DNA of 64,000 bases, from positions 755,992 through 819,991 of the forward strand of contig CAWFEX010000008.1 in assembly GCA_963814955.1 (NCBI GenBank), given 5' to 3'. A program made the position numbers and the translations under genes. Origin of the DNA: an uncultured Acidobacteriota bacterium (GTDB lineage: Bacteria > Acidobacteriota > Vicinamibacteria > Vicinamibacterales > UBA2999). The notes beneath the pieces are model-generated. The model ran no database searches, was not told the origin of the DNA, and saw nothing but the letters and a program-made list of their open reading frames with translations. Each line of letters opens with the position of its first letter. The stretch's first letter is position 1. Below, in pieces: positions 1-64,000 of this stretch.

Positions 1-203
1 CGTCCGTGACCGTCACGGGCAACTGCGCCCAGATTCTGGGCACGGCGACGGTCAACGGTACGCCGGATCGTTCGGATTCCAGGTGGACGTATGCGACAAC
101 GGCGAGCCCGGCAAGGATGCCGACACGTTCTCGATCGTCCATGAGTGACGGCTACACCGCCGGTGGCACGTTAGGCGGCGGCAACGTTCAGATTCACAAA
201 TAG
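1..203 (+). pseudogene. 3' end of a secreted-protein gene (C-terminus ...GEPG...GGNVQIHK), with two compensating frame changes as sequenced
   Basis: The middle of ORF 6..203 reads as Arg/Ser filler (PDRSDSRWTYATTASPARMPTRSRSS). The -1 frame from ~59 to ~140 reads protein-like YAGSFGFQVDVCDNGEPGKDADTFSIV and rejoins MSDGYTAGGTLGGGNVQIHK*. The gene begins upstream of the window. Confidence 0.4.
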
Positions 204-216
204 ACAGGGGAACGCC

Positions 217-692
217 ATGAAGCAACTAACTTGTGTGTGTGCGATTGTCGTTCTCGGGCTGGTTGCCATCACGACGGTCCACGTCAGTGCCGCCGACGGC
301 GAGCATTCGGTCACCGGTGCCGCGAAAGGCCTCTTCGGCGCCGGGGCGGAGCTGGGCCCTGTCGCGCTCGAGGGAATCGATGATGGGCACAGGCGTGTTC
401 ATCGAGGCCGACGGCTCAGCGTCGGGAACATTCCACGCCGTGCTGCAGGGAAGCTCGCTGGGGTCACTCGCGGGAGGTCACGGTGGAGGGGAACGTCAGC
501 GAGGGCTCGGTCGCGGCCGACGGTCGCGCGACCTTCAGCGGCACCGCCTCGCTCGACTTGGGGGACGGAGCGCCGCCTCTGCCGAGCGTCGCGTTCAGCG
601 TCACTGCGGCAGCGGACGGTGTGGTACTGAAGATCGACTCAATAACGTTGCCGGCCGCCAGACTCACCGCCGGTGCCGTCACCATCGAGTAG
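217..692 (+). pseudogene. Small exported protein (signal peptide); the frame changes twice as sequenced
   Basis: The signal peptide is MKQLTCVCAIVVLGLVAITTVHVSA. Sensible sequence continues +1 at ~386 (TGVFIEADGSASGTFHAVLQGSSLGSLAG) and +1 again at ~478 (VTVEGNVSEGSVAADGRATFSG...LTAGAVTIE*, stop at 690-692). The uninterrupted frames degrade into Arg-rich filler. Confidence 0.45.
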
Positions 693-809
693 AAGGGACC
701 GTGGCGTGGTTGCTCGTCACCGTCGGTATGGGAGGCAGGGGCCAGGCTGTAAGTAGGACGACGCGACAGCGGTAGTCTGGAGGCTCTTCGTTCAGGGACT
801 ATCGTCTAT

Positions 810-1199: not shown

Positions 1200-4100
1200 T
1201 ACGGCTTCGCGGGATTGAAGGCGCCGTGCGACGCGTGGACGACCAGCAGGTGCTCGATCATCTGCCGCATGTCTTCGATGTCCTTGACGAAGAAGCCCGC
1301 CGCCCCCGCCTGCTCCATCGCATGGGCGGCCGCGCTGCGAGGCTGCATCGACAACCCGAGAACCTGAATGTCCGGGAGCTCGGCGCGAATGCGCACCGTC
1401 GCATCGATGCCGTCCATGTGCGGCATCACGATGTCCATGAGGATGACGTCAGGCCGCAGCGAGTGCGCAAGCGCGATCGCCTCAAAGCCGTTGGACGCCT
1501 CGCCGACGACCGAGAGCTGCGGCCGCGCGTTGAGAATGTTGCGGAGCGCGCTGCGCACCGGCGCGTGATCGTCGACGATGAGAATCCTGAGGGCGTCAGG
1601 AAGCGCTCGGCCGTTGTCGCCCGCCCACGCCGCGCCGATCAGTGGGAAGGCCGACGCTGCCGGGCCGGCGACGGCGGGTTGCGCGTGGCCGCGCGGCGCG
1701 ACGAGCCGCACGCGCGTCCCCTTGCCGGGCGCGCTGTCAATCTCGAAGCGGCCGCCGAGCAGCGTCAGCCGCTCGCGGATACTGAACAGCCCCCAACCCA
1801 CCTGGCCGGCCTTCGATCGCTGGTCGAGTTCTGCCGGTTCGAACCCAATGCCCTGATCCGACACGGTGATGCACAGCTGATCGTCGGGGTCGAGCCCCAG
1901 CTCCAGCGTGACGCGATCCGCGTGCGCGTGTTTGACCGCATTGAACAGGAGTTCTCGCACCGACTCGAAGAGCAGGGTGCGGACGTCCTTCCGCCCGGAG
2001 TCGGCGCGCGGGTCGCCGATGACCCGGACGTCGAGTTTGTACTTGTCGTGTGTCCAGTCTGCCAGCCACGTCAGTGCCGCGGGCAGTCCGGACTCCTGCA
2101 GCACGGGAGGAAAGAGCTCGACGTTCAGGGACCGGGCGGCGGCGATCGCTTCCTCGAGCTGGTGCTTTGCCTCTGAAAGCAGCTCGCTTGGCGCGGCGCC
2201 GCTCTCGCTGTCCTGCCTCAGCTGCTGCTCGAGATTCAATGCAACGATGACCAGCAGCTGTTGAAGGCCGTCGTGCAGCGTTCTGGCAATCTGTTCGCGC
2301 GCATGCTGTTCGGCCAGCGTCAGATCCGAGGCCATCTGGCTCAGTTGCGTCGTCCGATATTCCAATTCCGCCGTGCGCTCCTGCAGCGCCGACGCGGCGC
2401 GCTGGCGATCGGTGATGTCGGTCACGAACGCGAATGCGCGTGTGCCGGCGGGCGTCGGAACGTGATTCATGCTGACTTCGATCGGAAACGTGGAACCGTC
2501 GCTGCGCACCCCGACGAGCTGCAGGCCGCCGCGCCGTTCATACCCGTCGCGAAACGCTGACGGCATCAGCCGCTCGATTCGCTGGCCGATCAGGTCACCG
2601 GACGCCCAGCCGAACATGGCGTCGAACGCGTGGTTCGCGGTCACGATCAGGCCCTGCGCGTCCACCGACACGATCCCTTGCGTGGCGGTCTCGAGCAGCG
2701 TCCGCAGCGCGCGATCGTGTTCCTCCTCGCGGCGCGCCTGCCGCGCCTCCTCCGTCCGGCGCTGCTGGCTGAAGTCGAGATCGAGCCCGGTGAGCCGCGT
2801 GACATTGCCGTCGGCGTCGCGGTCGACGCGCCCCCGGCTCTGGATCCACGACATCGTTCCGTCTGGCCGCACGATCCGGAACGTGCTCTCCCACGAATCC
2901 TTCGTTCTCGACGTCCACATTTCATGGCGCAAGGCGAGCAACCGCGGGCGATCGTCTTCGTGCACGCGCGTGACCCACGCGTCTGGCGTTGCGGGTTCAT
3001 CGGGCGCGAACCCGTACAGGGAACGGAATTGTTCGTCCCAGTCAACCTGATTGGTCGCCGCGGCCCACGTCCAGGAGCCGCCGGTCGACGCTTCGAGCGC
3101 GATGCGGAGCCGCTGTTTCTGCTCGCGGAGCGCCGCCTCGCCCCGGGTGCGCTCGATGGCGTCCCAGGTCCGTTCGCCGACGTCGCGAACGAGCTCGACC
3201 TCTGACGCCGTCCAGACGCGCGGCGCGACGTGATTGGCGCCGAAGGCGGCGACCATCCGTCCGCCCTTGAACAGCGCCGTTCCGATGAACGCTGCTATTT
3301 GCCGCGGCTGCCAGTGTCGCCCGGTCGGCGGCGTTCAACCGCGGATCCGTCTGCGCGTCGTCGATGACGATGGTCTCGCCGCGCCGGAGCGCCTCGCGCA
3401 GCTCGTCGCCCACCGAGATGCCCGGTGGCTGTCCGGCGAGCGGCGGGACCCCATGCGTGTACTCACGGCGAATGGTGTACTCGCCGCCGCCGAATTCCGC
3501 GTAGCCGACGCGGGTGACGCCAAGGTGTTGTCCGAGAAGTCGTGCGGCGGTCTCCTGAACGTCACCGGGATCGCTCAGCGGCCGAAGCGCGTCGTTGAGC
3601 CGAAGGAGAAACCCCAGCCGCTCTTCCTTTGTACGCAGCTCGGCTTCGGCCTTGCGGTGCTCGAGCGTCGCCCAGATCCGGTCGGCGACGTCCTGCACCA
3701 GCGCGATCTCCTCCGGGGTCCACACGCGCGGCTCGCGGCTGTGAACCGCGAACGCCCCGACGAACCGGCCGTCCTTGACGAGCAGTGGACAGATGTAGGC
3801 GCCGATGGCCGCCGCCTGCAGCACCTTGCGCTCGGCCGCCGAATGCGGCTCGGTCGACGTGTCGTGGACGAACAACGTGCCGCCTTTCAGGATTTCGTCG
3901 GTGCGGGTGCCGCCCATGTCGGTCCAGCGAAAGCGGCCGGCCAGCGAGGGAACGCCATCCACGTAGTCGTTGACGACGGTGCAGTCGTCGCCCTCGATCT
4001 CGCCGTAGATCACGCGGTTGACGTGGAGGTGCGTGCCCAGCAGTCGGCATGCCTCCTCGAGTACGCGCGCAGGGTCGGCAAACTCCCGGATCGTCTCGTT

Positions 4101-4906: not shown

Positions 4907-6826
4907 TCATGGCCCGACTTCGGCCTGGTCGAACAGGACGATGTCGCTGGATGCCCGCTGCTGCCCGACGATCACCGAGCGCCCATCGGCCGTCCACGTC
5001 ATCCCGCGAATCAATGCATCGTCCGGAAACTTGAACACCTGCCGAACCGCGCGATGTGGTTCCAGCTCGGCGATCCACAACGACGCCGCCGCTGTACCCG
5101 GTATTCGCGCTGCCGCGATGGCGCGCCCGTCCGGAGACCATGTCAGAAACCCGTTCGGGAACGGCAAAGTCTGTCCGATGTCCCGAGCCACCGACTGTCC
5201 AGCCCCGGTCGTGAACCTGACGAACGCTGTTGCTTGTTGACCCGGGGTATTTGGCGTTACTTCGAGGTAGGCGATGACGTCGGCGGTGGGCGACCATGCG
5301 GGAGACGTAGCGCCGCCCGGTGTGAGCAGCCGGCGCGTACGCCCGTCTGCAACTGTCACAACCGATAACCCGGGAAGCTCACCCACGGGCGTCGAGTAAA
5401 CAATCTCGTGGCCATCAGGCGACCACGAGAAATATGGAAGGATGGGTGCATTCAGCAGACGGCGCGGAACGCCGCCGTCTGTCGCCACGATCCACAGACC
5501 GCGTTCGCCGCCACGGTTGGAAATGAAGGCGACCTGCTGTCCGTCCGGAGCGAACTGCGGGTACTCGTCGACTGACGTCGCCGATGTCAAAGGGCGCGCG
5601 TCAACACCGTCTCCAAGAGCGATCCACAAGTTTCGCTGACCCGAGCGAGTCGAGCTGAACACCATGCGATCGCCACGGCGCGACAGGTTCGGATCCAGGT
5701 CACCGCCGTAGCCGTTGGTAAGCGCGGTCGGCATCGGCAACGGCGCAGCGCGAAAATCGACACGTACGAGTGAATCACGCCTTTCGAACAGCGTTGACAC
5801 CATCGTGCGACCGTCAGTGGAGATTCGCGGTTGTCCGTATTCACCCACTCCCGTCGTCAGGCGCACCGGGGCGCCCCCAGCAACCGGACGCCACCAGAGG
5901 TTCAGGTCCGCCTTGGTTGGATGGGCGGTGAGCATTTCGTAGAGCACACAGCCAAACGCCCAGATGTCGGTCCGCTTGTCGACGTGCTTGCCGCGGGCCT
6001 GCTCAGGGCTCATGTAGTGGGCGGTCCCAAGGATGGCACCCTCGTGCGTACCGCCCACGGTTATGGTTGGCGAGTGCGTCAGGTCAAGAGCCGCGGCGTC
6101 GCCACCAGCCTTTGCCAGACCGAAGTCGAGTACCTTGACGACACTCTCTGACGTGATCTGGATGTTGGCCGGCTTCAAGTCGCGGTGTACGATTCCTTTG
6201 TCGTGCGCGGCGTCGAGCGCATTAGCGACCTGATGCGCGATAGCAAGCGCCTCGGCAATCGGAATCCCGCTTGGTGACCCCCTGCGATTAGATGTGCGAG
6301 CACGCGTAATCCGGTCGGCGAGCGTCTCGCCCTCTATCAGTTCCATCACGAGCGCACGGACGCCGTCGCTGTCCTCGACTCCGTGAATGGTCGCGATGTT
6401 CGGGTGATTGAACGATGCAAGAATACGGGCTTCCCGTTCGAATCGCGCCAACCGATCCGGATCTGTGGTAAACGCGCGGGGCAGGATCTTGATAGCGACG
6501 TCCCGCCCGAGCTTCGTGTCGCGCGCGCGGTAGACCTCGCCCATGCCGCCAGTCCCGATTCGGGACTGCACCTGATACACACCGAGGCGACGACCCGTCA
6601 GCACGGAAGCGCCGACGTCACCGACCAACTGTGTCGCGATCGCGACCGCGGGTTTGTCGAGGAAGCCGTCAGCCGATGCGCTTTGCTCGAGCAGCGACTC
6701 GACCTCCTGCCGTAACGACACGTCACCGGCACAGATCTCGGCCAGAAACGCTCCACGCGAAAATTCATCGCGTGCCAGAGCCGCGTGATAGAGCTCCTCG
6801 ACCCGCCTCCAACGTTCGGCTGTCAT
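4907..6826 (-). CDS. Ser/Thr protein kinase fused to a TolB-like (PD40/WD40-like) beta-propeller
   Basis: The N-terminus is MTAERWRRVEELYHAALA. Kinase motifs GTGGMGEVYRA, VAIK, HRDLKPANI, DFGLAK and SPEQ are present. The C-terminal repeats are of the DGRxxxF/SxRxG..NLW type. Confidence 0.85.
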   Translation of the reverse strand: MTAERWRRVEELYHAALARDEFSRGAFLAEICAGDVSLRQEVESLLEQSASADGFLDKPAVAIATQLVGDVGASVLTGRRLGVYQVQSRIGTGGMGEVYRARDTKLGRDVAIKILPRAFTTDPDRLARFEREARILASFNHPNIATIHGVEDSDGVRALVMELIEGETLADRITRARTSNRRGSPSGIPIAEALAIAHQVANALDAAHDKGIVHRDLKPANIQITSESVVKVLDFGLAKAGGDAAALDLTHSPTITVGGTHEGAILGTAHYMSPEQARGKHVDKRTDIWAFGCVLYEMLTAHPTKADLNLWWRPVAGGAPVRLTTGVGEYGQPRISTDGRTMVSTLFERRDSLVRVDFRAAPLPMPTALTNGYGGDLDPNLSRRGDRMVFSSTRSGQRNLWIALGDGVDARPLTSATSVDEYPQFAPDGQQVAFISNRGGERGLWIVATDGGVPRRLLNAPILPYFSWSPDGHEIVYSTPVGELPGLSVVTVADGRTRRLLTPGGATSPAWSPTADVIAYLEVTPNTPGQQATAFVRFTTGAGQSVARDIGQTLPFPNGFLTWSPDGRAIAAARIPGTAAASLWIAELEPHRAVRQVFKFPDDALIRGMTWTADGRSVIVGQQRASSDIVLFDQAEVGP

Positions 6827-6996: not shown

Positions 6997-8596
6997 ATGA
7001 CTTGCCAAACCTTGATGAGCCGGCCGGCGCTGGCGCTTGTCGCAGGCGCATTTCTCGCAGCGTGTTCTTCGCAACCGGCAGAATCCCCGGCGGGCGCCAC
7101 ACCAGACGCAGATTCGAAGGCCGCAGAGCCCGCTCCGGAACAGGCTCTCCTCGAAGACCTGGTCGTGGCGAACCGGATTCTCACGCGCGAGGTAGGCATC
7201 CTCGACATCCAGGCGCACGTGAGCGCGCGCAGCCAGACGAATCCAAACCACTGGTACATGGCGCGCTTTGTCGCCCCAGGCGGCGCGAGCCTCAGCGACA
7301 TGGTCGAGTACCGACCTCGAGAGCACGCCGGTCAAAGGCCCGCGCAACGACAATGCACGTGAAACGTTCCTGCATGGCCAGATCTTCAAGGCCAGACCCG
7401 ACGTCATGGCTGTCGTGCATGCGCACACGCCGGAGTTCGTGGCGTTCGGCGTGAGTTCCGTGCCGCTCTACTGGGGTCCAAACCGGCCGGTCCCGGTCTG
7501 GGATATTCGTCCAGTCAACAACGGCCGCAACGGCATCGTCAGCAGCAACCCGCTCGGCCAGTCGATGACGGAGAAGCTCGGCAACAATGAGGCAGTGTTG
7601 CTCTGGGGGCACGGAATCTCTCTCACGGCCAAGTCGCTGCCGGAAGCGATTCATCGGGTGGTTGCCCTCCGCACGAATGCCCGGTTGCAGCAAGCCGCCA
7701 TATCGATTGGCAATCCGGCAACGCCCGAAGCGATTGTCGACGACGCGGCCGCGGACCAGACGGCGTGGGATCACTACAAGCGCATCGATTTGAAAGCGGA
7801 GAACGGGAAAGTACCGGCGAATCCGGCGCCGATGCCGTCGAAGCCGACCGATCCCATCGCCGCTTCGAGGCACGACCTGATGATCGCCAATCGCATCCTC
7901 GCGGACGACTCCGTCGGGCTCCTCGATACCTCGGGTCACGTCAGCCTGCGCAATCCCAACAACCCGAACAGCTACTTCGTGGCCACCGCTGCGCCCGGCA
8001 GCGTTACCGGCAACGACATCGTCGAACGCGATATCACCAAGCCGGGCCCCGACACGATGGGACTGTCGATTGACGACGAGATCTACAAGGCGAATCCGAA
8101 TGTGATGGCCGTGCTGTACTCGCGGGCGCCGGACATTGTTGCCTTCACACAGGGCGTGCAGCTGCGTCCCGTAGTCAACGGCGCCGCGTTCGTTGGTGAC
8201 GGACTGCCGATGTTCAACATGTCGACGCTGGATCCGAAGCAGCCGTTGCTGTCGAATCCGGCGTTCGGAAAAGGCGTTGCCGCCGCGCTCGGCACGAAGC
8301 AGGGGGTGCTGTTGTCCGGGCACGGTCTGGTGATGACGGGGCGATCCATTTACAACCTGGTCGGCACCTCGTATCAGCTGCGACAGAACGCCAGAATCCA
8401 GCAGCAGGCGATGGCGCTGCGGGGCAAGGTCACGCCGCTCAACGACATTACGGTGCCGCCGGAACCGCCAGGCGAAGGGAACGCCAATGCTGGTGCCGGT
8501 CCGCAGGGCGGGCGCGGAGGCCGCGGGGGACAACAGCTCGGTCCGCCTGAAGGGCGCGACTGGGTCTACTGGGCACAGACCATCCCGCTCGACTAA
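6997..8596 (+). pseudogene. Lipoprotein with two tandem class II aldolase/adducin-like domains; one +1 frame break at 7308-7312
   Basis: The lipobox is LVAGAFLAAC. Domain 1 continues across the break (SDMVEY|DLESTPVKGPRNDNARETFLHGQIFKARPDVMAVVHAHTPEFVAFG). Domain 2 is HDLMIANRILADDSVGLLDTSGHVSLRN...NPNVMAVLYSRAPDIVAF. Confidence 0.8.
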
Positions 8597-11390: not shown

Positions 11391-11438
11391 ACGCTCTGAG
11401 GAAGCCGCGTCGCGTAGACGAAGTCAATTGCCCGCGTA

Positions 11439-19758: not shown

Positions 19759-19780
19759 ACCGCTTTCGTATTGGCATTGG

Positions 19781-19888: not shown

Positions 19889-19889
19889 A

Positions 19890-52341: not shown

Positions 52342-52851
52342 ATGACGCAGTCACTTCCCAGAGTGCTAGGGCCGAAGGAAGGCGTGGCCGGGTTCCTCGG
52401 CAGCATCGGCGTGAGGTTTCTCATTAACGGAGAGGATTCCGGCGGTGGATTCTCGCTCGTTGAACATCCGATGTCCGCGCACGCGCTCGGCGCTCCGCTG
52501 CATCGGCACTCCCGGGAAGATGAGTACAGCTACGTCGTGGAAGGGCGCGTCGGGGCGCTGCTGGGTGACCAGGTCGTCGTCGGCAGTCCAGGCGATCTGA
52601 TTTTCAAACCACGAAACCAATGGCATACGTTCTGGAACGCCGGCGACGAGCCTGCGCGTCTCCTCGAAATCATTTCACCCGCAGGCTTCGAGCAGTATTT
52701 TGCCGAACTGGTCGCGTTGGGCGGATCCACCAAGGCAGAACGCGCGACGTTAGCCGCACTCGCGCAACGTTACGGCCTCGAGGTGGATGCGGCCAGCATC
52801 CCTGAACTGACGAAGCGGTTTGGCTTGAGGTTTCCCGGCGAGCCTGTGTAG
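52342..52851 (+). CDS. Cupin-domain protein
   Basis: GGGFSLVEHPMSAHALGAPLHRHSREDEYSYVVEG...PGDLIFKPRNQWHTFWN. Confidence 0.8.
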   Translation: MTQSLPRVLGPKEGVAGFLGSIGVRFLINGEDSGGGFSLVEHPMSAHALGAPLHRHSREDEYSYVVEGRVGALLGDQVVVGSPGDLIFKPRNQWHTFWNAGDEPARLLEIISPAGFEQYFAELVALGGSTKAERATLAALAQRYGLEVDAASIPELTKRFGLRFPGEPV

Positions 52852-52865
52852 CGCGGCCGTCGATT

Positions 52866-52904
52866 CCCTTCACGAGACGACGTGGCACGTCGTCTCGTGA
52901 AGGG
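52866..52904. terminator. Bidirectional intrinsic-terminator-like hairpin between convergent genes
   Basis: Perfect 18-bp stem cccttcacgagacgacgt / acgtcgtctcgtgaaggg with a 3-nt loop, between the stops at 52851 (+) and 52919 (-). Confidence 0.7.
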
Positions 52905-52918
52905 TGTGTGTTGCGTTA

Positions 52919-54568
52919 CTATCTCTCCGGTCGAAGGGTCTCGACCCGCCCGTTCGTTCCGATCGGCTCGCCCGACACGACCAGTTCGACGCGACGATTC
53001 TGCTGTCGCCCTTCCGGCGTTCCGTTCGTGGCCACGGGACGGCTTTCCCCGAATCCGGCGGTGCCGACGGTCTCTGGAGCAATACCCTGCTCGATGAGGA
53101 ACGCACGAACGGATGCCGCCCGCTGTTCGGACAACCGCTGGTTGTAATTGTCAGTACCGATGCTGTCGGCGTGTCCCTCGGCCTCCATCTCCAGTCCCGG
53201 ATGCGACTGGATGATGCCGGCGATCCTGGCGAGCTTCTCGCGCGCACCCGGCCTGAGCGTGGCTTTGTTGAAATCAAAGAGTACGTCCGACAGGTTCACG
53301 ATGAGGCCGCGGGCCGTTTCGCGGGTCTCGAGGATCACGTTGAGCTGTTCGCGCAGCTGCTCGCGAAGTTCGGCCTTCTCACGCTCGGCGCGCAATGCCT
53401 CATCTCGTGCCGCCTGGGCCTGAGCTTCTGCAGAGGCGCGTGCCGCTTCTGCAGAGGCGCGTGCCGCTTCAGCGGCGGCGCGCTCGCGCTCCGCATCGAG
53501 CGTGGCCCGCTCCGCGTCGGCTTTAGCGCGGTCGGCGGCCATCCTGGCGGCGTCGGCATCCAGCCGTTGACGCTCTGCCGCGAGCCTTGCGGCGTCAGCG
53601 CGCGTCCGCTCGGCCTCGGCCCGCTCGCGCGCGTCTTCTTCCGCACGCGCTCGCGCAAGCGCGTCCGCTTCCCGCTGGGCCGCCAGCGCGCGCTCGCGCG
53701 CCTGAAGCTCCTCTTCCCGCCGCTGCAAGGCGATGATGCGCGCGTCCTCTGCCGTCTGAACCGCCTGCCGCGCGGGCTGCTGCACGGTATTCCCGCCTTT
53801 GCGCCGCTCGCGCGCCAGTTCCGCTTCGCGCAACAGCGCCGCGGCCTTCGCATACGTGTCGGCCGCGTACTCATTGGCGCCGGCCACGCCCGCGAGCGCC
53901 ACGGCGTTGCGCGCTTGCGCGAGATCGAGCTGGGTACCAGGTTCCGGCGCCTTCACCTTCAGCGCCGCGTAGTCCTGATTCATGACGTAGGTGCCGCGTT
54001 TGAGCAGCTCGTACTTGGCGTCGATCGTCTCGACCCGGCCGTCGGTTCCGCGCTTCACGGCGTTTTCCATGATGACGACGTCGCTCGGCTGGGTGACCGC
54101 AAAGTACGGCTCCGCCGTCACGATCAAGCCAAAGGCCTGCAGTTCGGTGGTGACGCGCACGCGCCGCTCGTCTTCAATCTGCAGTTCGCCGAGGTTCGTG
54201 GCGCGACCCTCGGGAGTAATGGCCCACATGACATACGTCAGGTACTCGGGTCCGAACTGCGTCGGCGGACCGATCCGATCGAACTCGCCGGTGATCTCGA
54301 TGTACCCCTTCTTTCCGCTGACGTCGATTTCGCCGCGGGCCCGCGGCATCAACGAGGTGCCGACCATGTCGAGCTCGGTGTCGCCGCGACGCGGCCGGTA
54401 GTTCACAGCCGCAACGGTGCGACCGACGATCGTCACACGAAAGACGGGCCGTCCTTCTGCATCAGTTGTCACGTTCTGCTGAACGGGATTCGGCGCCGTC
54501 TGCGCGAGTGCGGTTCCGCCGAACAATCCACCTGACACCAACACAGCAGCAACGATTCGGCTGAGCAT
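52919..54568 (-). CDS. Exported OmpA-family protein with a long Ala/Arg/Glu coiled-coil linker
   Basis: GGAGG RBS followed by ATG at 54568. Signal peptide MLSRIVAAVLVSGGLFGGTALA. Central region ERALAAQREADALARARAEEDARERAEAERTRADAARLAAERQ. C-terminal OmpA domain LFDFNKATLRPGAREKL...NYNQRLSEQRAASVRAFL...NRRVELVV. Confidence 0.85.
   Translation of the reverse strand: MLSRIVAAVLVSGGLFGGTALAQTAPNPVQQNVTTDAEGRPVFRVTIVGRTVAAVNYRPRRGDTELDMVGTSLMPRARGEIDVSGKKGYIEITGEFDRIGPPTQFGPEYLTYVMWAITPEGRATNLGELQIEDERRVRVTTELQAFGLIVTAEPYFAVTQPSDVVIMENAVKRGTDGRVETIDAKYELLKRGTYVMNQDYAALKVKAPEPGTQLDLAQARNAVALAGVAGANEYAADTYAKAAALLREAELARERRKGGNTVQQPARQAVQTAEDARIIALQRREEELQARERALAAQREADALARARAEEDARERAEAERTRADAARLAAERQRLDADAARMAADRAKADAERATLDAERERAAAEAARASAEAARASAEAQAQAARDEALRAEREKAELREQLREQLNVILETRETARGLIVNLSDVLFDFNKATLRPGAREKLARIAGIIQSHPGLEMEAEGHADSIGTDNYNQRLSEQRAASVRAFLIEQGIAPETVGTAGFGESRPVATNGTPEGRQQNRRVELVVSGEPIGTNGRVETLRPER
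53425..53466. repeat. Perfect 21-bp x2 in-frame tandem duplication in the OmpA-family coiled-coil region
   Basis: cttctgcagaggcgcgtgccg occurs twice and encodes AEAARAS twice. Confidence 0.85.
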
Positions 54569-54690
54569 AAGAACCTCCGGCACTTTCCCGAGCAAATGTC
54601 CCGCCATTGCCGACCTAAATCCACGTTGTTCGGATGCCTTTTCGTCACACCACTTGTTGACTACAAACGCACAGAATCTCCTCTCTATTA

Positions 54691-54741
54691 CCCGTTTGCG
54701 GGAACCGGCTTCCATCCGCCCGTTTGCGGGAACCAGCTTCC
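54691..54741. promoter_or_regulatory. Two 23-bp direct repeats in the divergent intergenic region (candidate regulator-binding sites)
   Basis: cccgtttgcgggaaccggcttcc (54691-54713) and cccgtttgcgggaaccagcttcc (54719-54741) match at 22 of 23 positions with a 28-bp period. Each contains a CCCG-TTTG-CGGG mini-palindrome. They lie between the divergent starts at 54568 (-) and 54856 (+). Confidence 0.3.
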
Positions 54742-54855
54742 TTCGCCCCGCGGCCTGCACGATTCCCATCACGGATCGGAATGGGCCTTGCACCCACTTA
54801 TGCCGACCGATATGGCCGAGGCGCGCCATCGTTCACGACGCCTGGAGGTAGAACG

Positions 54856-55434
54856 ATGAAGAGGTACTTGATTGCAGCGGCGCTCGCGGTAGCGCTTGTA
54901 CCGACGCCGGCTCGAGCCGATTGGCTCTTCACGCCGAGCCTGGGGACTACATTCGGCGCCGACGCAAACGGGAGCGAGCACTTCACGTACGGCGCCGCGC
55001 TCGGTTGGATGGGCGAAGGCATCTTCGGGTGGGAAGCAGACCTGTCGTTTACGCCGGAGTTCTTCGAAGGCAACGATGACGACTTCGATTTCGACGGCGG
55101 GTCGAACGTCGTGACGGCGATGGGGAACGCGATAATCGGGTTGCCGTTCGGCGGGCAGCGTGATGCAGGATTCCGACCGTATGTAACGGCCGGACTCGGC
55201 ATGCTTCAGACCGAAGCGCGCAACAGCACCGATCTGGTCCGAGTCGACAACAGCGAGTTCGGCTTCAACGTTGGGGCTGGCGCGCTTGGTTTCTTCAGCG
55301 ACCACGTCGGCCTCCGCGGCGACGTGCGGTACTTTCGTTCGTTCGTCGATCCGCAGGAAGACAACGAATTCGATTTCGACGTGGGCAGATTCGACTATTG
55401 GCGCGCCGCGGGTGGCATTACGTTCCGCTGGTGA
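54856..55434 (+). CDS. Small outer-membrane beta-barrel protein (OmpW/OmpA-beta-barrel-like)
   Basis: GGAGG RBS. Signal peptide MKRYLIAAALAVALVPTPARA. Alternating amphipathic strands, ending in ...AAGGITFRW (aromatic C-terminus). Confidence 0.8.
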   Translation: MKRYLIAAALAVALVPTPARADWLFTPSLGTTFGADANGSEHFTYGAALGWMGEGIFGWEADLSFTPEFFEGNDDDFDFDGGSNVVTAMGNAIIGLPFGGQRDAGFRPYVTAGLGMLQTEARNSTDLVRVDNSEFGFNVGAGALGFFSDHVGLRGDVRYFRSFVDPQEDNEFDFDVGRFDYWRAAGGITFRW

Positions 55435-55461
55435 CCGCCTAGATACTTACCTTCCTCAGTA

Positions 55462-55487
55462 CCGGCGGGTCCTTCGGGACCCGCCGG
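55462..55487. terminator. Hairpin between convergent genes
   Basis: Stem ccggcgggtcc, loop ttcg, stem ggacccgccgg (11-bp GC-rich stem, tetraloop), between the stops at 55434 (+) and 55559 (-). Confidence 0.65.
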
Positions 55488-55558
55488 CTCGGCGGATCCA
55501 GACGACCAGAACCTGGGGTACTTACCTGGCGGCTAGGCTGGAACCGTGACGAGGCGCC

Positions 55559-58226
55559 TCAGCGACCTCGCACAGAGCGGTCGACGGCGGGCTCGTCTTC
55601 GTCGGTATTCGGAGCAGATGGCAGAGATGCAAGCAGCTTCATGATGACTTCGTCATCCACAGGCTTGACGAGGTGTGCGTCGAAGCCAACGTCCTTCGAC
55701 TTCTGACGATCCTCGTCCTGCCCCCACCCCGTCAGCGCCACGAGCAGAAGATCCCGGCCCCACGGCTGTTCCCGAATCCGACGGCACACCTCGTAGCCGT
55801 CCACGACCGGCAGCCCGATGTCGAGCAGAACCGCATCGGGCCGGATCCGTTCGGCAACACTGATTGCCTCGATGCCGTCGTGAGCGACGTGCGTCTCATG
55901 GCCGTTCAGATTCAACAACGTCGCGAGCCATTCCGCGGCGTCCTCGTTGTCGTCGACGATCAGGATGCGACGCTGCGTCGTGGACGGAGGTCCGGCGGCG
56001 GCCTCCCGTGAGATGGACTCGGGCAGTTCGGCCACACTGGGCAGGCGAACAACGAATTCGCTCCCGCGGCCAAGTCCCTCACTGTGGCCTTCGACCGTAC
56101 CTCCGTGCATCTCCACCAGCGTCTTCACCAGCGTAAGACCGATGCCCAACCCGTCCCGTGAACGCTCCAGCGACGTATCGACCTGCGTGAACATCGCGAA
56201 CAGCCGGGGAAGCTGGTCGGCAGCGATGCCGATGCCGTTGTCTCTCACTCTGACAACGGCGTGCGCGGCGTCCTGCTCGACAGTCAGCCACACGTGGCCA
56301 CCTTTGTCGGTGAACTTGCACGCGTTGTTCAGGAGGTTCCCGAGGACCTGAGTGAGTCGCATCGGGTCGGCATCGACGTAGAAGGGCTTGAGCGGCAACG
56401 TCACCGTCAGTTCATGGTTCATGGTCTTGTAAAGAGCACGAGTGGCCTCGACCGCATGGTTGATGATGGGGGCCAGTTCGACCCGCTCTTTGCGGAGTTC
56501 AATCTTGCCGCGCGTGATGCGGCTCATGTCGAGCAGGTCGTCCACCAGCCGGACCATCTGGCCGACCTGGCGCTCCAGCATTTCGGACGCCGCGTGGATG
56601 GCTTTTCCGTCGCCGCTCAGGCGTAGCGCTCGAACCGCGTTGCTGATGGGCGCAAGGGGATTGCGCAGCTCGTGCGCCAGCATCGCCACAAACTCGTTCT
56701 TGCGGCGGTCCGCTTCGGACAGATCGGTCGCCACACGCCGCAAGTCGTCCTCAAGCCGCTTCCGCTGCGTCACCTCCTGGCTTACGGTCGCAAGCGCCAC
56801 CGGACGTCCGTCGGCGCCCGGCAATGTCAGCACCTTGTACGCCATCCAGCGAGCCTCGCCGGTCTTGAAGTGTCGAAACCGAATCTCGATCTCGCCGTGA
56901 CCCTTTTCAAGGACGGACGGAAAGAACTCGTCCATCATGCGTTGCTGGTCTTCGGGGAAGAAGAACGAAAGCAGCGGTGTGCGTCGGGCTTCCTCGACGC
57001 TGTCGAGCCCGACCATCTCCAATCCCGCCCGGTTGACGAAGAACGGGATGCCGTTCAGATCGCACATGCCGATGAAGTCGGTGCTGTTTTCAACGAGCGT
57101 GACGAATTTCTCGCGATCCGCCTCGGCCCGCCGCTGCAACGTGACATCGCGCGCGATCTTTGACGCCCCGACCACGGTACCGGCGGCGTCCTTGATCGGC
57201 GAAATCGTGAGTGAAACGAGGATGCGCTGACCGTCCGATCGTGCACGCTCGGTTTCAAAATGTTCGATCCGTTCGCCCGCCTTCAAGCGGGCAACAATCT
57301 CGTCTTCTTCCGCGATCCGTTCGGGAGGGATGATCAGAGAGATATGGCGGCCAACAGCCTGATCGGAGGTATACCCGAATACATGCTCCGCACCGGCATT
57401 CCAGCTCTGAATGACACCGTCGAGCGACTTGCTGATGATGGCGTCGTCCGAGGATTCGACGATGGATGCGAGCAGACGCGCCGTCAGAAGCTGGTTTGCC
57501 TTGTCCTTCTCCAGACCGCGCTGCACCGTAATGTCTCGGAAGATCAGCACGCATCCGGCAACCTGACCTCTTTCGTCGGTGATCGGGGCGGCGCTGTCAT
57601 CGATCGGACACTCGCGCGCCGTCCTTCTGAATCAGCACAGTGTGGTTCGCGAGGCCGACGACGACTCCTTCACGAAGGGCTTTGGTTGCCGGATTTTCGA
57701 CCGGCCGATGAGTCTCCTCGTTGACGATTCGAAAAACCGCATCCAGCGGTTGACCGAGGGCATTCCCCAGTGTCCAGCCGGTCAACGACTCGGCAACGGA
57801 ATTCAGATTGGTGATGTGGCCTTGCACGTCGGTGGTGATGACGGCGTCGCCAATGCTGCGAAGCGTTACCTGCAACAATTCGTGCCGGTCGTCTGCCCGA
57901 GCCCGGGCTCGGCGCATGGCCTCGCCAAATCCGATGATCAGTGCACATGTGAAAAGATACGCAACCAACCCGACGACATTTGCGATGTTGTCCAGGCGAA
58001 GACTGCCTCGAGGTGGAATGAACAGATACGCACACGCCACGTAGCCGAGGATCGTCACGATCACGGCCAGACGATACCCGCCCACCCACGCTGCAGCGGC
58101 AACAGCCCCGAACAGCGTGACGAGCGGCAGCGTGTCACCCATCAGGGGATCGAGCGCCCAGCGGAGCAGGACGGCCGCCACAACGGCGGCGATGGCTAAT
58201 GCGTAAGAAATAGCCGAGCTTCGCAA
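55559..58226 (-). pseudogene. Hybrid sensor kinase: DUF4118-like membrane module, 3xPAS, HisKA/HATPase, REC; +1 frame break near 57598-57608
   Basis: ORF 57597..58226 carries TM helices and the first PAS, and ends ...LIQKDGARVSDR*. The PAS continues in the +1 frame as (I/V)DDSAAPITDERGQVAGCVLIFRDITVQR, which leads into ORF 55559..57550. Downstream are the H-box FVAMLAHELRNPL, G-box GLGIGLTLV and receiver ILIVDDNEDAAE...LDIGLPVVDG. Confidence 0.85.
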
Positions 58227-58446
58227 TTCGGTCTCACAGCCGGCATGCTAGCGCAGCCAGCGCCGGTAACTCCAACACCACGGGCGTCGAGTCGTGAATA
58301 TCAACGTCATCGCTTCTCAGGGCTCAGTGGGCATGGCTTGTCCTCGTTGCGAGAGGACAGGTTAATCGGACACGGGGCCGGTGCGGCAATTACTCGCGGC
58401 CATGCGCATCATATCCACTGGCAGGGGGGTTGCTCAACGAAGGTAT

Positions 58447-59304
58447 ATGAGGGTTTTCCGCCTGGTGAGCGCCGCCGCGATGGTGATGGTGCTCGTTCTA
58501 CCGCCGACAGCGGTCAGTGCCCAGCGCGAGAGCGGCCGAGACCGCGACCGGCACCGGGACGGCAACTCAACCGATCGGGCCGGAGTGAAACAACCCCGTG
58601 CCGTAAAACCCACAGCCGTCAGGGAGGTCGTCATAGGACCGCCGGTAGTCGTGCAACAGCCTATCGTCGCCGGCTGGGCAACACAGGGGGTGCCCGGCGC
58701 CACTGGTTTTGGTTCCGTGCCAGTCCGCACGGGCTTTGGAACGCAGCCAATAAGGACCGGTTTCGAAACGGGATTCGTCCGCACCGGATTCGGGGCTCAG
58801 ACTCTCACCCAGATTCCCCCGTCGAACCCGCGACGGGAAAGCTTCCGATCAAAGGGCTTCCACCACGCGAAACAGCGGACCGGAGTGCTCGTTATTGCTT
58901 ATCCGGTGCCTTACCCGTACGCGTACCTCCCTGAGTCGGGCTTCACGACATCATCGACCGCGACGTATCTCCCGCCGTTCCCGCAACGACGCAGCGTTCA
59001 TGGTGTTACGGGCGTGTCAGCAGGGCCGTCGACTTACTGGATGGATCTGACGAGCGAGACGGGGCCGGCCAGCGGGTTGAGCTTCAACGTGAAGCCCGCT
59101 GCGACCCAGGTTTACGTGGACGGCAATTATCTCGGCACTGTTCAGGACTTCTCCATCGACAGCGGACCACTCATCGTCGTCCCCGGACACTATCGGTTGG
59201 AGTTGCGTTTGCGCGGATATCGAACGATCGCGCTCGATGTATCCCTTGCGGCCGGTCAGGTCATTCCGTACGAGGGAGAACTGGAACAGCTGCGACCTTT
59301 TTAG
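58447..59304 (+). CDS. Exported PEGA-domain protein
   Basis: Signal peptide MRVFRLVSAAAMVMVLVLPPTAVSA, an internal (V/I)RTGF repeat run, and the C-terminal PEGA-like VYVDGNYLGT...PGHYRLELRLRGYRT. Confidence 0.75.
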   Translation: MRVFRLVSAAAMVMVLVLPPTAVSAQRESGRDRDRHRDGNSTDRAGVKQPRAVKPTAVREVVIGPPVVVQQPIVAGWATQGVPGATGFGSVPVRTGFGTQPIRTGFETGFVRTGFGAQTLTQIPPSNPRRESFRSKGFHHAKQRTGVLVIAYPVPYPYAYLPESGFTTSSTATYLPPFPQRRSVHGVTGVSAGPSTYWMDLTSETGPASGLSFNVKPAATQVYVDGNYLGTVQDFSIDSGPLIVVPGHYRLELRLRGYRTIALDVSLAAGQVIPYEGELEQLRPF

Positions 59305-59356
59305 CGAGCACCGCTCGCGTGGCGTTGCAGGCGCTCGAAAACCAGAGGGAATGGGA

Positions 59357-59379
59357 GGGGCCGCCCGGCGGACGGCCCC
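59357..59379. terminator. Weak hairpin between convergent genes
   Basis: 7-bp stem ggggccg ... cggcccc with a 9-nt loop, between the stops at 59304 (+) and 59387 (-). Confidence 0.35.
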
Positions 59380-59386
59380 GACACCG

Positions 59387-59956
59387 TTACTTGGCGGTGA
59401 TGATCGGGTGGCCGCGACGGTTCTGCTGCCAGCAACCCTCGTTTGTATCGAAACAGACAGGCGTTTCTTCGCCTTTGGTGACCACCAGCACGCGATCCGG
59501 CGTGACGCCGAGGCTGGCCATGTAATCTTTGACCGCGTTCGCGCGGCGCTCGCCCAACGCCAGGTTGTACTCACCGGTGCCACGGTCGTCGCAATGACCC
59601 TCGATCGTGACCCGCGTCGATTTCCACCGCATCAGCCACTCGGCATTCCGCTGCAGAACGACCCGCGCGTCTTCACGAAGCGTCGAATCGTCCAGATTGA
59701 ACAGGACGTCGGCCAGCGGCCGTTCGGCGTTGAGCTGGTCCAGCGTCTTTTGCGCGAAGAGCTCCTCTTCACTCAGCGCCGTGGAGGCCGTTGCCGGTGC
59801 GGGCGCAGCCGTCCGCGAAGGGGGAGGGGGAGGCGCATCGACGACGGGCGACGGAGGGGCATTGCTGGCCGTTGCCGGCGGTACCTTCTTGCCGCATCCC
59901 ATCGACACGATCGCCGTACACAGAATCGTCAGCCCTACGAAATACAGGCGTCTCAT
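59387..59956 (-). CDS. pal: Peptidoglycan-associated lipoprotein (OmpA family)
   Basis: GGAGGA RBS. Lipobox IVSMGC, a Pro/Ala-rich linker, and VLFNLDDSTLREDARVVLQRNAEWL...VTIEGHCDDRGTGEYNLALGERRANAVKDYM. Confidence 0.85.
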   Translation of the reverse strand: MRRLYFVGLTILCTAIVSMGCGKKVPPATASNAPPSPVVDAPPPPPSRTAAPAPATASTALSEEELFAQKTLDQLNAERPLADVLFNLDDSTLREDARVVLQRNAEWLMRWKSTRVTIEGHCDDRGTGEYNLALGERRANAVKDYMASLGVTPDRVLVVTKGEETPVCFDTNEGCWQQNRRGHPIITAK

Positions 59957-60092
59957 ACTTTCGTTCCTCCTTGTCCCACCGATGTCATCAATAACGGTGA
60001 TTTCGGCTGATGGAGGCGAAGTCTTGAGACACGTACTCGACGGTAGGCGGCGGTTTTTGGACGGCGCCGAATCAAGGATGCAGTGCTGTGAA

Positions 60093-61632
60093 CTAACGGG
60101 TCGAATCCTCTGGCTCCAGAGACGTTTTCGCGACGGCCGCCGCATCAGCCGTGCGGTGTTCCAGCGCCGCCTCGAACAAATGCTGAATCTTCTCGCTCTC
60201 CCGGTATTCCGCGAGAATCGCGCGGCGGCCGCTCGTCTGGGCGTCGTCAATCGCATACGCGAGCACGGTGGCCATCACGGTGCCTTCTTCCGTGTTGGTC
60301 TGTGCAAAACGTGTCTCGAATGCGCGCAACACAGGCTCGAACGACGCGTCGTCCCACTGTTCCTGCCCTGCATCGAGACGGACGAACTCGCTCAGGACCG
60401 AGGCAAACGATTCGCTCGGGGGCCGATGCCAAAACGACACGTCGGGACCGAACTCCTCGACATACATGGGGAGATAGACCGTTCCTCGGGCGGGCACGCG
60501 TGTCTGGAGTGCGGGATTGAACCGGCGGACCTCGTCGGCCGACAGCCCCGTCCGCCGCGTTATCTCCGCCAGCGGAATCGGTCGAAGCGCTCGCATTGCA
60601 TAGATCCGGGTCTGGGGAGTTTCGGCCGTCAGCACGTTGACGGTGAACGTGTTTCCAAAAACCATCTCCGAATACAGATACGAGCGCGGCCCATATGTCC
60701 GGTAAATATCGCGGTAGCGGTAAAGCGAGATCTTCCGAACGTCTCTGGCGAACTGCGATCCAAGGAAATACTGATCGCGAACACTCGTGCCGCCGAGGCG
60801 TTCGCCGCTGATCAGTGTCCGCCCTACGTTGGTTCCGCCGCTGTGGTGTTCGGACAGCGCAGGGATGAACGATCCGTACTTCGTGGCGAGGATCGTCAGG
60901 TACGCTGCACAATATGGCGCTTGCGTCGTCTGGCTGTAGCCCTCGATTTCATGCGGCGAAAGACGGTTCAATCGCCTCCAGTTCGTCAGGAGCCACTGAC
61001 AGAATCCAACGGCCCGCGCGGCTGAACGCCGTGTGGGATGGAAGCCTGATTCGATGGCGGCCTGCGCCAGGCCAATCTCCCCCGGGACGCCGAATCGCTC
61101 ATAAATCGCCGCCCACTCCTTCAGGAAGCTGCCGTATCGGCGCGCCTGCGGGAGGACGAACTGACCGCGCGTCGGGTTGTGGACGACCGGACCCACCAGC
61201 GGTTCGAGCAGCGCGGCAACCTGCTCGCGGCGGTCGTCCAGTCTTCTCGCGAGCTGTCGGCCTGCCAGGAGTCCCTTGGCGCGATCGTCGTACCAGACCG
61301 CCTCGCGCGCCCAATCCCCTTTCGTGGGAAACACTGCCAGGAGCCGTCCATCGACGGCGCTGCCAAAAGCGATGAAGTTGTCGGGAATCGTGAAGATGTG
61401 TTGCCAGAACGCGTACCCGGGCCGGAACGACACCATCGCGGCAAGGTCGTCACTCCAGCGGCTTTTCGATACACGTGTACGCCCCCTCCGCGTCCCCCGG
61501 CGTGCCGAGGCTCGACCCGGAGCTCGAGGACAGACCGACTCCCGGCGCCTGCGCGCCGACGGAGGGCACAGTGAGGTCGAGACTTGCAATCGCCGCAACG
61601 GCAGCCACTGCCAGCCCGATCGTTTTTCTCAT
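60093..61632 (-). pseudogene. Exported lytic transglycosylase (SLT domain plus LysM-like segment); +1 frame break between about 61452 and 61482
   Basis: The signal peptide MRKTIGLAVAAVAAIASLDL... (frame of ORF 61450..61698) stops at 61450. The body continues in the +1 frame (RWSDDLAAMVSFRPGYAFWQHIF...). The SLT catalytic region is GLAQAAIESGFHPTRRSAARAVGFCQWL. Confidence 0.7.
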
Positions 61633-61837
61633 TTGCGAATGGCGGAATGATAGCCGAAGCAGCGGCGTTGCCATTCGCCTGCCATCGATAAACTGCACAA
61701 CGAATGACGTAGTTGGCGCTCACTACGTCGGTTTTATCGAAATCTGTAAGCAGAATTACGAATAACGGGAGCGTGGTGTACTATCCGCTCGTGCCGGACG
61801 GCCGGTTCCGAAATCCGGCGATACGGGAGGCTCGATC

Positions 61838-62494
61838 ATGCGCCTGATTCCACTCACTGCGGCAGCGTTGATCCTGTTCACGTGCGAACCCGCCACGGCC
61901 CAGAACTGGCGCGAGTTTACCAGTCAAAAGGACTTCTTCATCGTCAACTTCCCCGGTGAACCCACGGTGAAAGACGTCACTTATCCGACCGAATTTGGCA
62001 TCAACTTGCCGGGGCGCGTGTATAGCGTCGAGGATGGGTCGAACCGCTACTCGATCACCGTCGTGGATTACGCGCCCGGGGAACGGATCCATGCGGACCG
62101 CGCCAGGAATTGCCAGGGATATCCCGATACGTGCACGAACCGCTGGATGAATGACCTGCGAGGCGCGCTCGACTACGCCGTGTCGAAGTACATTCAACAG
62201 AAAGGCACGGTGACGTACTACGCGTTCGCCGACTCGGACCGGGTTGAAGGACGCCGGGTACAACTGACCAACGCCAACGAGTCGCGTACCTTCGTCGCCA
62301 TCTACATGCACCGGAATCGCCTCTATATTCTGGATGGCACCGTTTCTCCGAGTGCGCCGCCGCCGGCGCTGTTTCAGCAGAATTTTGGATTCTTCGACGA
62401 GGAGGGCGTCAGGGTTCGCTATCGGACGCTGTACTCGAACCTGTACCCGGCCCCTCCGCGGGAGGAGACCCGGGGCCGGCTGCAGGGTTGCTAG
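61838..62494 (+). CDS. Exported hypothetical protein (218 aa)
   Basis: GGGAGG RBS. Signal peptide MRLIPLTAAALILFTCEPATA. Good coding character. No family was recognised. Its 3' end overlaps the convergent Sel1 ORF. Confidence 0.65.
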   Translation: MRLIPLTAAALILFTCEPATAQNWREFTSQKDFFIVNFPGEPTVKDVTYPTEFGINLPGRVYSVEDGSNRYSITVVDYAPGERIHADRARNCQGYPDTCTNRWMNDLRGALDYAVSKYIQQKGTVTYYAFADSDRVEGRRVQLTNANESRTFVAIYMHRNRLYILDGTVSPSAPPPALFQQNFGFFDEEGVRVRYRTLYSNLYPAPPREETRGRLQGC

Positions 62495-64000
62495 CGACGG
62501 TGGGCTCGCCACAATTCTGGAACTTCGACTCCACGCACACGGCAACGCGCGCCTTCGCGTCCTGAAGTTGATCCGGCCCTAACATCGCGGCTACCTTGTC
62601 GCGGCTCCCCGCGGCCCCGATGTCCGCCCGCGTCTGCGCCACTGCTAACCAGACGTACGCTTGAACGAAGTCGCGCGTTCCGCTGCGGCCGGTGGCGTAC
62701 ATCAGGCCGAGCTCGGCTTGAGCTGGCGGATATCCTTGTGAAGCGGCAACGCGATACAGCCGCATCGCCTCGGCGTTGTCCACGGGCATGCCGTCGCCGC
62801 GCACGTACATCTCGGCCAGGTAAAAGGACGCGGGTGGGAATCCCGCCTTTGCCGCGCGCTCGAACCATCCTCGTGCTTCGGCAGGATTTCTCGACACGCC
62901 GGCGCCGCGGAGGTACATCAGCCCGACGCCAATCTGCGCCGGCGCATAGTTCTTTTCGGCCGCGAGTCGGAGCCATCGCAACGCCTCGGCCTGGTTCCGG
63001 GTCACGCCGCGGCCGTCCAGAAGCGCTCTGCCGATTTCGAACTGCCCCCTCACATCGCCCTGATCGGCGGCACGCCGATACCATCGTGCCGCCTCCCTCT
63101 CGTCGCGGCGCACGCCCCGGCCCATCGCATGGAGAGTGCCGAGCACGTACGCTGCGTCTGGATTTTCGCCGTCAGCGGCAAGTTGAAACCATCGAATCGC
63201 TTCCGTCTCGTCTTTCGCGACACCCTGGCCCTCGAGGTACATCACCCCGAGCGCGTACTGTGCCCCCGTGTGCTTCTGCTCGGCGGCAAGGCGATACCAG
63301 CGGCTCGCCTCCGCGTCATCTTTCGGAACGCCACGACCCGCGCCGTACATGAACCCAAGCGCGAACTGCGCGACTGCCTCCTTCTGATCCGCGGCGAGCC
63401 GATACCACCGCAGCGCCTCGCGATCGTCCTTGACGACACCGCGACCCTCCGCATACATCCTTCCCAGACCGTATTGCGCGCCGGCATGCTGTTGCCCGGC
63501 AGCGCGGCGTACCATTCGAGGGCTTCCGAGTCGCTTTGCTCAACGCCACGGCCAGTGGCAAATCGGTTGCCCAGATCGTATTCAGCGCTCGCGAATTGTT
63601 GATCCGCCGCGAGCCGAATCCAACGAACCGCTTCGGCGTCGTCGGCAGGAACACCGCGGCCGCTCGCGTACATGGCTCCCAGCGCGAATTGCGCAGCGGC
63701 ATGTTTCTGGTTCGCGGCGGTCCGGTACCAGCGCACGGCCTCGACATCGTTCTGGGCGACACCCTCGCCTTCTGCAAGAAGAACCCCGAGTACTGTACTG
63801 AGCGTCTGCGTATCCGTTCTCCGCTGCCAGAGCAAACCATCGACTGGCCTCTGCCGGAGCCTTCGTCACGCCTCGACCGGCCTCGTACCAACCGCGCGAG
63901 CTCGAATTGCGCGGGCGCGAAGCGCTGCTCAGCGGCGCGGCGATACCACGCCGCGGCCCTGGCGTCATCGTGTGGCAAGAGCACGCCTCGTCGATAGAAG
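62409..64000 (-). pseudogene. Sel1-repeat (TPR-like) protein, 5' end outside the window; three frame breaks as sequenced
   Basis: More than 12 consecutive Sel1 units (AQYxLGxMYxxGxGVxxDxxEAxxWYRxAA). The repeat register continues across the breaks at 63885-63889 (FELARL|YEAGRGVTK), 63790-63798 (ADAQYS|LGVLLAEGEGV) and 63509-63513 (SEALEWY|RRAAGQQHAGAQ). Confidence 0.8.

Follow-up and report, generated by a model that had tools for sequence, protein, structure and literature searches.

Frame breaks in a 64 kb segment of a Vicinamibacterales metagenome contig cluster at GTAC and most probably reflect long-read consensus errors

Several genes in a 64 kb stretch of an uncultured soil Vicinamibacterales bacterium (assembly GCA_963814955.1, contig CAWFEX010000008.1, positions 755,992 to 819,991; the whole stretch is termed the window below) are interrupted by shifts of reading frame, many of which lie on the tetranucleotide GTAC, raising the question of whether these breaks belong to the organism or to its assembled sequence. 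The initial annotation of the window, made from the letters alone, had counted 15 frame breaks, eight of them at GTAC, and had offered a motif-specific basecalling or consensus error, a genuine mutational hotspot and recoding as explanations. The present analysis indicates with high confidence that the frame breaks are long-read consensus errors, more than half of which fall at GTAC, and that a GTAC-specific modification is the most likely cause.

The breaks were located without the use of the earlier list, in four ways: with a Viterbi model of codon usage in six frames, from the coordinates of Pfam profiles on stop-to-stop open reading frames (ORFs), by tblastn of homologous proteins and by DNA alignment against near-identical contigs. 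The same total of 15 was reached independently, together with a 16th break at 41077 that the initial annotation had missed and that also escaped the codon-usage frame model. Most of the GTAC-linked breaks could be placed to a single nucleotide, and all nine of the sequences previously quoted for them were found in place.

The window has a G+C content of 63.9% and contains 188 GTAC sites, with ∼212 expected from base composition, indicating no notable depletion. GTAC with 1 nt on either side covers 1.76% of the window and GGTAC/GTACC covers ∼0.75%, in fair agreement with the 1–2% estimated initially. Nine of the 15 breaks (57–66, 7312, 26036, 36521, 37389, 61470–61476, 63508/9, 63791–63794 and 63889) touch GTAC ±1 nt, compared with 0.37 expected from their actual uncertainty intervals (binomial P ≃ 1 × 10−11, n = 15 breaks), and none of 200,000 random placements gave more than five GTAC hits. 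The association initially put at eight of 15 and far beyond chance therefore holds and was slightly understated. It is also partial, as had been claimed, with ∼11 of the 188 sites (∼5%) affected and ∼95% of GTAC sites read in frame. With GTAC oriented 5′ to 3′, the lesion typically adds a C directly after the motif, on either strand: the form is GTAC[C]G at 7312, 26036, 37389 and 55462, GTAC[C]CG at 36521 and GTAC[C]A at 63889. The other GTAC lesions consist of a lost C (63508), an extra A (13436), an extra base between abutting GTAC sites (63791–4) and a garbled motif (61470–76). Two of the GTAC-adjacent insertions (13436 and 55462/3) are located in intergenic DNA.

Exact-protein look-up recovered conspecific contigs from other samples. 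One of these, termed the sister contig here, is contig_66635 of ENA assembly ERZ25039531 (660 kb; stretches L081, L165, L168 and L169), which is 99.4–99.6% identical in DNA sequence to the window across ∼50 kb; two others (L166 and L170) come from ERZ25039494 and one (L176) from ERZ25039536. These relatives are Flye-style 'contig_N' records from three ENA assemblies with neighbouring accession numbers. A further contig, L167 (ERZ27274788 k133_4699073), bears a MEGAHIT-style name and was treated as short-read-style, and several Joint Genome Institute (JGI) and Logan contigs of 1–9 kb (L082–L084 and L171–L175) complete the set, the near-identical comparison contigs overall showing 97.5–99.6% DNA identity. 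The nearest matches to the cyclic β-1,2-glucan synthase of the window in a species-level genome collection are metagenome-assembled genomes (MAGs) of Vicinamibacterales (Acidobacteriota) with at most 80% amino-acid identity, many of which stem from the Microflora Danica long-read project; no synteny of these genome-collection relatives with the window was found beyond the glucan synthase gene, and the best relatives in a scan of metagenome contigs reached at most 86% identity. The methods of that project describe Nanopore-only Flye assemblies with one round of Medaka (PMC12313526), and it is probable that the assembly containing the window was made in the same manner, which fits the contig naming and the neighbouring relatives.

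Comparison with these sequences shows that the indel of the window is absent from near-identical contigs or proteins at ten of the 16 breaks, including six GTAC-linked ones (positions named include 7312, 36521, 37389, 41077, 42647, 57617, 61470–76, 63508 and 63889), and that GTAC itself is intact in the relatives wherever it adjoins one of these indels. The lesion is shared with close relatives at two (26036 and 63791–4) of the 12 breaks for which a near-identical contig exists. The other long-read contigs carry GTAC errors of their own. The sister contig has indels or garbling at the GTAC sites 56102, 59884, 60877 and 48217 and GTAG instead of GTAC at 56840 and 61781; L166 has lost the base after GTAC at 13181 and has a C inserted within GTAC at 13445; L176 has a shortened G run abutting GTAC at 18292; and at 15243 the sister has GGAC and L166 GCAC, where the window and JGI L082 have GTAC. 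The short-read-style and JGI contigs, where they cover such sites, match the intact version (L167, L171 and L082). The motif-specific error favoured here, the first of the three initial explanations, is thus supported both by the absence of the indels from independent sequences and by the private GTAC errors of long-read contigs alongside intact GTAC in short-read-style contigs.

Among the individual GTAC-linked breaks, one lies at 7308–7312 (plus strand), where an extra C at 7312 after GTAC interrupts a two-domain class II aldolase. Eleven proteins from JGI, ENA, Logan and SRC (92–100% identical and all members of one 90% cluster) cross this break, nine of them full length at 525–532 residues; the alignments run from 7015 or 6997 to 7311 in one frame and continue in the next frame from 7313 with no residues missing, and the DNA of L166 reads GAGTACGACC, without the extra base. 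The gene at 32369–40905 encodes a cyclic β-1,2-glucan synthase with GT2, glucoamylase-like and GH94 domains (Pfam) and is broken twice on the plus strand. At 36517–36523 GTACC is read as GTACCC, with the frame boundaries given by tblastn and the additional base absent from L169, L170 and L176; at 37389–37393 an extra G lies 5′ of GTAC, which on the minus strand is a C following the motif, with tblastn matches stopping at 37388 and resuming at 37390 and the base absent from L169 and L176. The interruptions of this gene differ among four contigs: they lie at 36521 and 37389 in the window, at 38324 in the sister, at 33299 in L176 and at many positions in L170.

On the minus strand at 61470–61480 the window has GCGTAC-ACGTGTA in place of the true sequence GCGTACGCGTAC with its two GTAC sites; one base is gained overall, and the second GTAC appears as ACGTGTA. 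The sister (L168) reads GTACGCGTAC here; its GCGTACGCGTAC encodes GAYAYSKS, and the same peptide occurs in the 97–98% identical protein P0257, which aligns to 61477 and resumes at 61469, and in L167. The initial annotation had listed this as a ninth break with GTAC at 61477–61480 inside a wider interval (61452–61482); it is now resolved to 61470–61476, adjoining GTAC, with a second GTAC in the true sequence. Three further breaks on the minus strand fall in a Sel1-repeat protein and are pinned by the 36-residue periodicity of the repaired protein. A base is lost beside GTAC at 63508–63512 (true GGTACC, window GTACC), where the periodicity gives WY-R-x-AA and L168 has the extra G. At 63790–63798 an extra base lies between two abutting GTAC sites, leaving 4 nt for one codon; the sister has an insertion here too, of a different base (GTAC-C-GTAC, compared with GTAC-T-GTAC in the window, with T at 63794), which is hard to square with an inherited insertion. 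At 63885–63889 GTAC is followed by an extra C on the plus strand, interrupting the repeat as ELARL|YEAGRGV; this base is absent from L168.

Two GTAC-linked breaks lie in other genes. The first break of the window (57–66, plus strand) falls immediately 3′ of GGTAC at 57–61, within the C-terminal fragment of a DNGEPG-containing secreted protein, and moves the reading from frame 3 to frame 2; the change is +2 or −1, as judged from tblastn and the C-termini of seven homologs (ATVNG-TGSFGF-QV). The position assigned to it in the initial annotation stands, but the single missing base does not, as the seven homologs are better fitted by a 2 nt insertion, either GGTAC[GC]CGGA or GGTACG[CC]GGA. At 26036–26040 (minus strand) an extra C after GTAC interrupts a gene with a PF17648 (luciferase-like) domain; the 63-position Pfam profile is split at 21/22, and tblastn of 30 homologs puts the switch at 26032–26040. 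Of the intergenic insertions, that at 13432–13436 is an extra A at 13436 after GTAC which is specific to the window, both L082 (JGI) and L166 reading GCGTACGGCC, while that at 55459–55463 is an extra C after GTAC relative to L168, the single comparator.

A real mutational hotspot at GTAC, or ongoing pseudogenization, arising for example from imperfect protection against an RsaI-like nuclease followed by error-prone repair, could also produce so strong a tie to a single motif, and would account for the breaks at 26036 and 63791–4 being common to close relatives. It would, however, need ∼11 GTAC-specific indels per 64 kb to have arisen within 0.5% divergence and without purifying selection. Eight breaks are missing from contigs that are 99.4–99.6% identical to the window, the set of GTAC lesions differs for each long-read contig and the short-read-style and JGI contigs have none at those sites; the inserted bases differ at the shared break at 63794, and the lesion at 61470–61476 is a garbled motif rather than a clean indel. 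The broken genes show neither stops nor other decay, their fragments being 97–100% identical in amino-acid sequence to intact homologs (97–100% for the aldolase and 97–98% for the protein broken at 61470–61476); no elevated divergence was seen in the fragments, and those of the glucan synthase align end to end with their homologs. Real pseudogenes, such as those accumulated by the reductively evolving, pseudogene-rich Mycobacterium leprae, gather stops, deletions and substitutions, and close relatives have them in common. The window resembles M. leprae in its many interrupted genes per unit length, but its fragments remain 97–100% identical to intact orthologs and its lesions are private to each assembly. 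A hotspot or pseudogenization is accordingly considered very improbable.

Recoding, by programmed ribosomal frameshifting or transcriptional slippage where GTAC occurs, had been ranked last initially and finds no support beyond the recurrence of the motif at the breaks. The same proteins occupy a single frame in homologs and in near-identical relatives, both +1 and −1 changes occur, the affected genes are unrelated and intergenic DNA is hit as well (13436 and 55462). Moreover, GTAC(C) is not a slippery sequence, and the great majority of GTAC sites, as noted above, are read in frame. This explanation can practically be dismissed.

The breaks are very probably foreign to the genome of the organism and represent one-base (rarely two-base or garbled) consensus errors in a long-read metagenome assembly of this Vicinamibacterales population. 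At more than half of them a C/G run ending in or abutting GTAC is miscalled in length, mostly as GTAC to GTACC. The most likely cause would be a GTAC-specific base modification in the lineage that perturbs the signal near the terminal C, with the distorted signal being resolved wrongly by the basecaller or polisher at a minority (∼5%) of sites. The higher coverage of the contig containing the window would presumably have removed random errors and left systematic ones; random errors are rarer in the window than in the shorter sister contigs, and GTAC accounts for a larger share of its errors, as expected if coverage clears the former and not the latter.

The window was compared with the sister over 33 kb (alignments 15013–35870 and 51841–64000, with one repeat-rich spacer left out). 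Eight of the 19 gap events lie at GTAC ±1 nt (P ≃ 2 × 10−8), as do nine of the 106 mismatches compared with 1.9 expected (P ≃ 1.6 × 10−4), whereas GATC, GCGC and CATG show no excess of gaps or mismatches in the same alignments. A bias of the basecaller or polisher that is intrinsic to the sequence context, at GTAC with a G or C after it, would require no modification and would affect any organism read with the same model; it would fit errors that are run-length miscalls of C/G beside the motif, the G that follows GTAC in the true sequence at most affected sites, the low proportion (∼5%) of sites hit and the fact that no methyltransferase was seen in the window. Against such a bias, GATC, CATG and GCGC, which are 4 nt palindromes of similar composition, show no excess; a general GTAC bias of a widely used model would probably have been widely reported, while published work on such errors (PMC11610573) describes strain-specific, methylation-linked motifs; and the substitutions within GTAC fit a signal disturbed across the whole motif. 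Context bias is therefore regarded as possible but unlikely, and the lineage probably carries a GTAC modification of its DNA.

A modification-linked artefact of this type has close precedents. Methylation-induced Nanopore miscalls at strain-specific motifs are known from bacterial assemblies (Lohde et al., 2024; PMC11610573), with strand-specific mismatches at modified motifs (PMC11610603), and GTAC is a known bacterial methylation motif, for example in Helicobacter pylori J99 (PMC10689673), although it is not mentioned in the Nanomotif preprint. The errors described here share with the published ones a short lineage-specific motif, recurrence across assemblies, absence from short-read data and partial penetrance. 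They differ in that the errors in those papers are purine/pyrimidine substitutions, while those in the window are mainly one-base indels directly 3′ of GTAC that shift the frame, and in that the modification is deduced here from the errors themselves. The artefact thus belongs to a broadly known class and takes an unusual form, that of indels. Restriction–modification systems of the RsaI, Csp6I and CviQI types that recognize GTAC provide a known route to a modified base at every genomic GTAC; unlike in those systems, neither a methyltransferase nor a nuclease gene of this kind was seen in the window or neighbouring loci. It is conceivable, although rather doubtful, that a GTAC modification is handled unusually badly by current basecalling and polishing models, giving run-length indels in place of the usual substitutions, in which case a modification outside the three standard methylations, or N4-methylcytosine or 5-methylcytosine at the terminal C that strongly affects the adjacent base, could be involved.

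Several observations count against attributing the breaks to modification-linked consensus errors. No DNA methyltransferase domain was found among the Pfam-scanned or pre-annotated genes of the 64 kb and ∼10 kb of flanking sequence, although a 64 kb window could easily miss the gene for such an enzyme. The methylation-linked Nanopore errors described in PMC11610573 and PMC11610603 are substitutions and not indels. The status of the JGI contigs as short-read assemblies was assumed, and one of them (L082) is itself frameshifted within a run of G at window position 13990. Of the 16 breaks, seven lie away from GTAC, indicating that a general background of errors is also present. Finally, each of the three long-read contigs spanning 26036 carries the identical break (L081/L165 and L176 show no indel relative to the window), none of the short-read contigs extends across the site, and no near-identical intact homolog of the gene was found, the closest intact one being 78% identical. 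This break could therefore be either a highly reproducible error or a real lesion of the GTAC[C]G form, possibly in a true pseudogene; in a bolder variant of the interpretation, it may be a real lesion at GTAC.

The seven breaks away from GTAC (140, 385–388, 473–476, 3299–3301, 41077, 42647 and 57617) are all +1 insertions. Three are located near the start of the window on the plus strand: an extra C at 139–140 (GTC[C]ATG), supported by homolog C-termini reading DTFSIVMSDGYTAGG, and, within one small gene for a secreted protein, an extra base in GGGC at 385–388 and another in a G run at 473–476. The latter two are placed by three-frame reading, and that at 385–388 is the weakest of the set, as the homolog search recovered none. 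The remaining four are on the minus strand. At 3299–3301 an extra A (AA to AAA) splits a ∼1145-residue GAF–PAS histidine kinase, as indicated by the Pfam domains of two ORFs, by ∼1145-residue homologs (at most 87% identical) that bridge the junction and by the codon reading. A HerA-like ATPase gene is broken twice: by an extra C at 41077 (GTT to GCTT), ∼46 codons before its end, and by an extra C at 42647–42648 (CCGC[C]AG). The former base is absent from L169 and L170, and the C-terminus of the sister (DTVACKPKKSTIRV and ACKPKKSTIRVLLVALVWAPY) matches the other frame of the window; the latter is absent from L169, L170 and JGI L172. At 57617–57622 an extra C in a CGCGCG run splits a DUF4118–PAS histidine kinase, dividing its PAS_4 domain between two ORFs (Pfam); this base is absent from L168. 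Homopolymer indels in Nanopore-only assemblies are known to fragment gene calls (Sereika et al., 2022; PMC9262707), and the errors in the window resemble these in being one-base run-length errors that give false frameshifts and in being worse in lower-coverage bins, a description into which the seven non-GTAC breaks fit. In contrast to the classical problem with homopolymers of eight or more bases, the runs here are of 1–3 bases and more than half are anchored on one tetranucleotide. GATC was tried as a second motif for the non-GTAC breaks and rejected, as only two of them lie within 3 nt of any of the 462 GATC sites in the window.

The value of these results is more practical than biological, the biological content being the hint of a GTAC modification in the lineage. 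The genes for the glucan synthase, the tandem aldolase, the two histidine kinases, the Sel1-repeat protein and the HerA-like ATPase are at risk of annotation as pseudogenes or split ORFs and are almost certainly intact in the organism. Frameshifts that pile up on one short palindrome provide a cheap diagnostic of motif-linked consensus errors that needs nothing but sequence, and indirectly reveal a probable methylation motif without signal data. Residual errors in long-read MAGs thus reach beyond long homopolymers, and motif-aware polishing could clear more than half of the frameshifts in the window.

A number of other frame switches were considered and rejected as breaks. Those at 1203, 17217, 18241 and 28696 are ordinary gene junctions, that at 44215 separates two tandem DUF1554 lipoprotein genes, the second of which begins MKSLLL, and that at 51740 is the GTG start of a PNPOx gene. 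The interval 60096–60274 belongs to a separate OmpA gene of 189 codons that is likewise called in L167, and 58381–58934 lies in one intact ORF with a PEGA domain.

The contig comparisons yielded several further differences at short motifs. In a TrkA-type channel gene at 15508 the window has GAAC where four other contigs, including JGI L082, have GTAC, a window-specific substitution inside the motif. ACGT and CCGG likewise have more mismatches between the window and the sister in their vicinity than expected (12 compared with 2.9 and 13 compared with 5.5, respectively), which may partly reflect overlap with ACGTAC. At 16330 a T2SSE ATPase gene is broken by the reading GATC[G]CC in the sister (L081 and L165) and in L166, while the window and JGI L082 read GATCCC; this insertion may represent a second, GATC-linked systematic error in other assemblies. 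The break in the synthase gene of the sister at 38324 also lies 1–2 nt from a GATC. In intergenic DNA away from GTAC, the window lacks a base at 52289 that is present in the sister and JGI L171, and at 52319 the GAAGATC of JGI L171 corresponds to GAAAGATC in both the window and the sister. The intergenic region 19756–19899 contains repeats resembling repetitive extragenic palindromes, CCGGAC(A/G)CTAC(G)TACGATTAC, with small indels that differ in every contig compared; in the JGI contigs, unlike in the window, one of the repeat copies includes GTAC.

Some of the genes discussed have features of their own. The aldolase gene (6997–8593) encodes a lipoprotein-type signal peptide followed by two class II aldolase domains fused in tandem (∼530 residues); the family is plentiful in soil metagenomes, with 120 homologs among the matches listed, all of 477–554 residues. 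The Sel1-repeat protein (62412–64000 and beyond; 11746–12966 in L168) runs upstream in the sister into a rhomboid-protease domain, so that the intact protein is probably a rhomboid–Sel1 fusion that runs off the end of the window. Two differences between contigs appear to represent variation within the species. A gene for a pyrroloquinoline quinone (PQQ)-dependent dehydrogenase (11416–13425) is present in the window and L166 and absent from L081 and JGI L082, in which the alignment jumps from 11415 to 13426; judging from these alignments, it is a 2 kb presence/absence polymorphism. At 5922, within a Ser/Thr kinase gene on the minus strand (4907–6826), L166 is ∼1 kb longer owing to extra PD40/Tricorn-type repeats, giving a protein of 911 residues compared with 639 in the window, an in-frame difference in repeat number without a frameshift.

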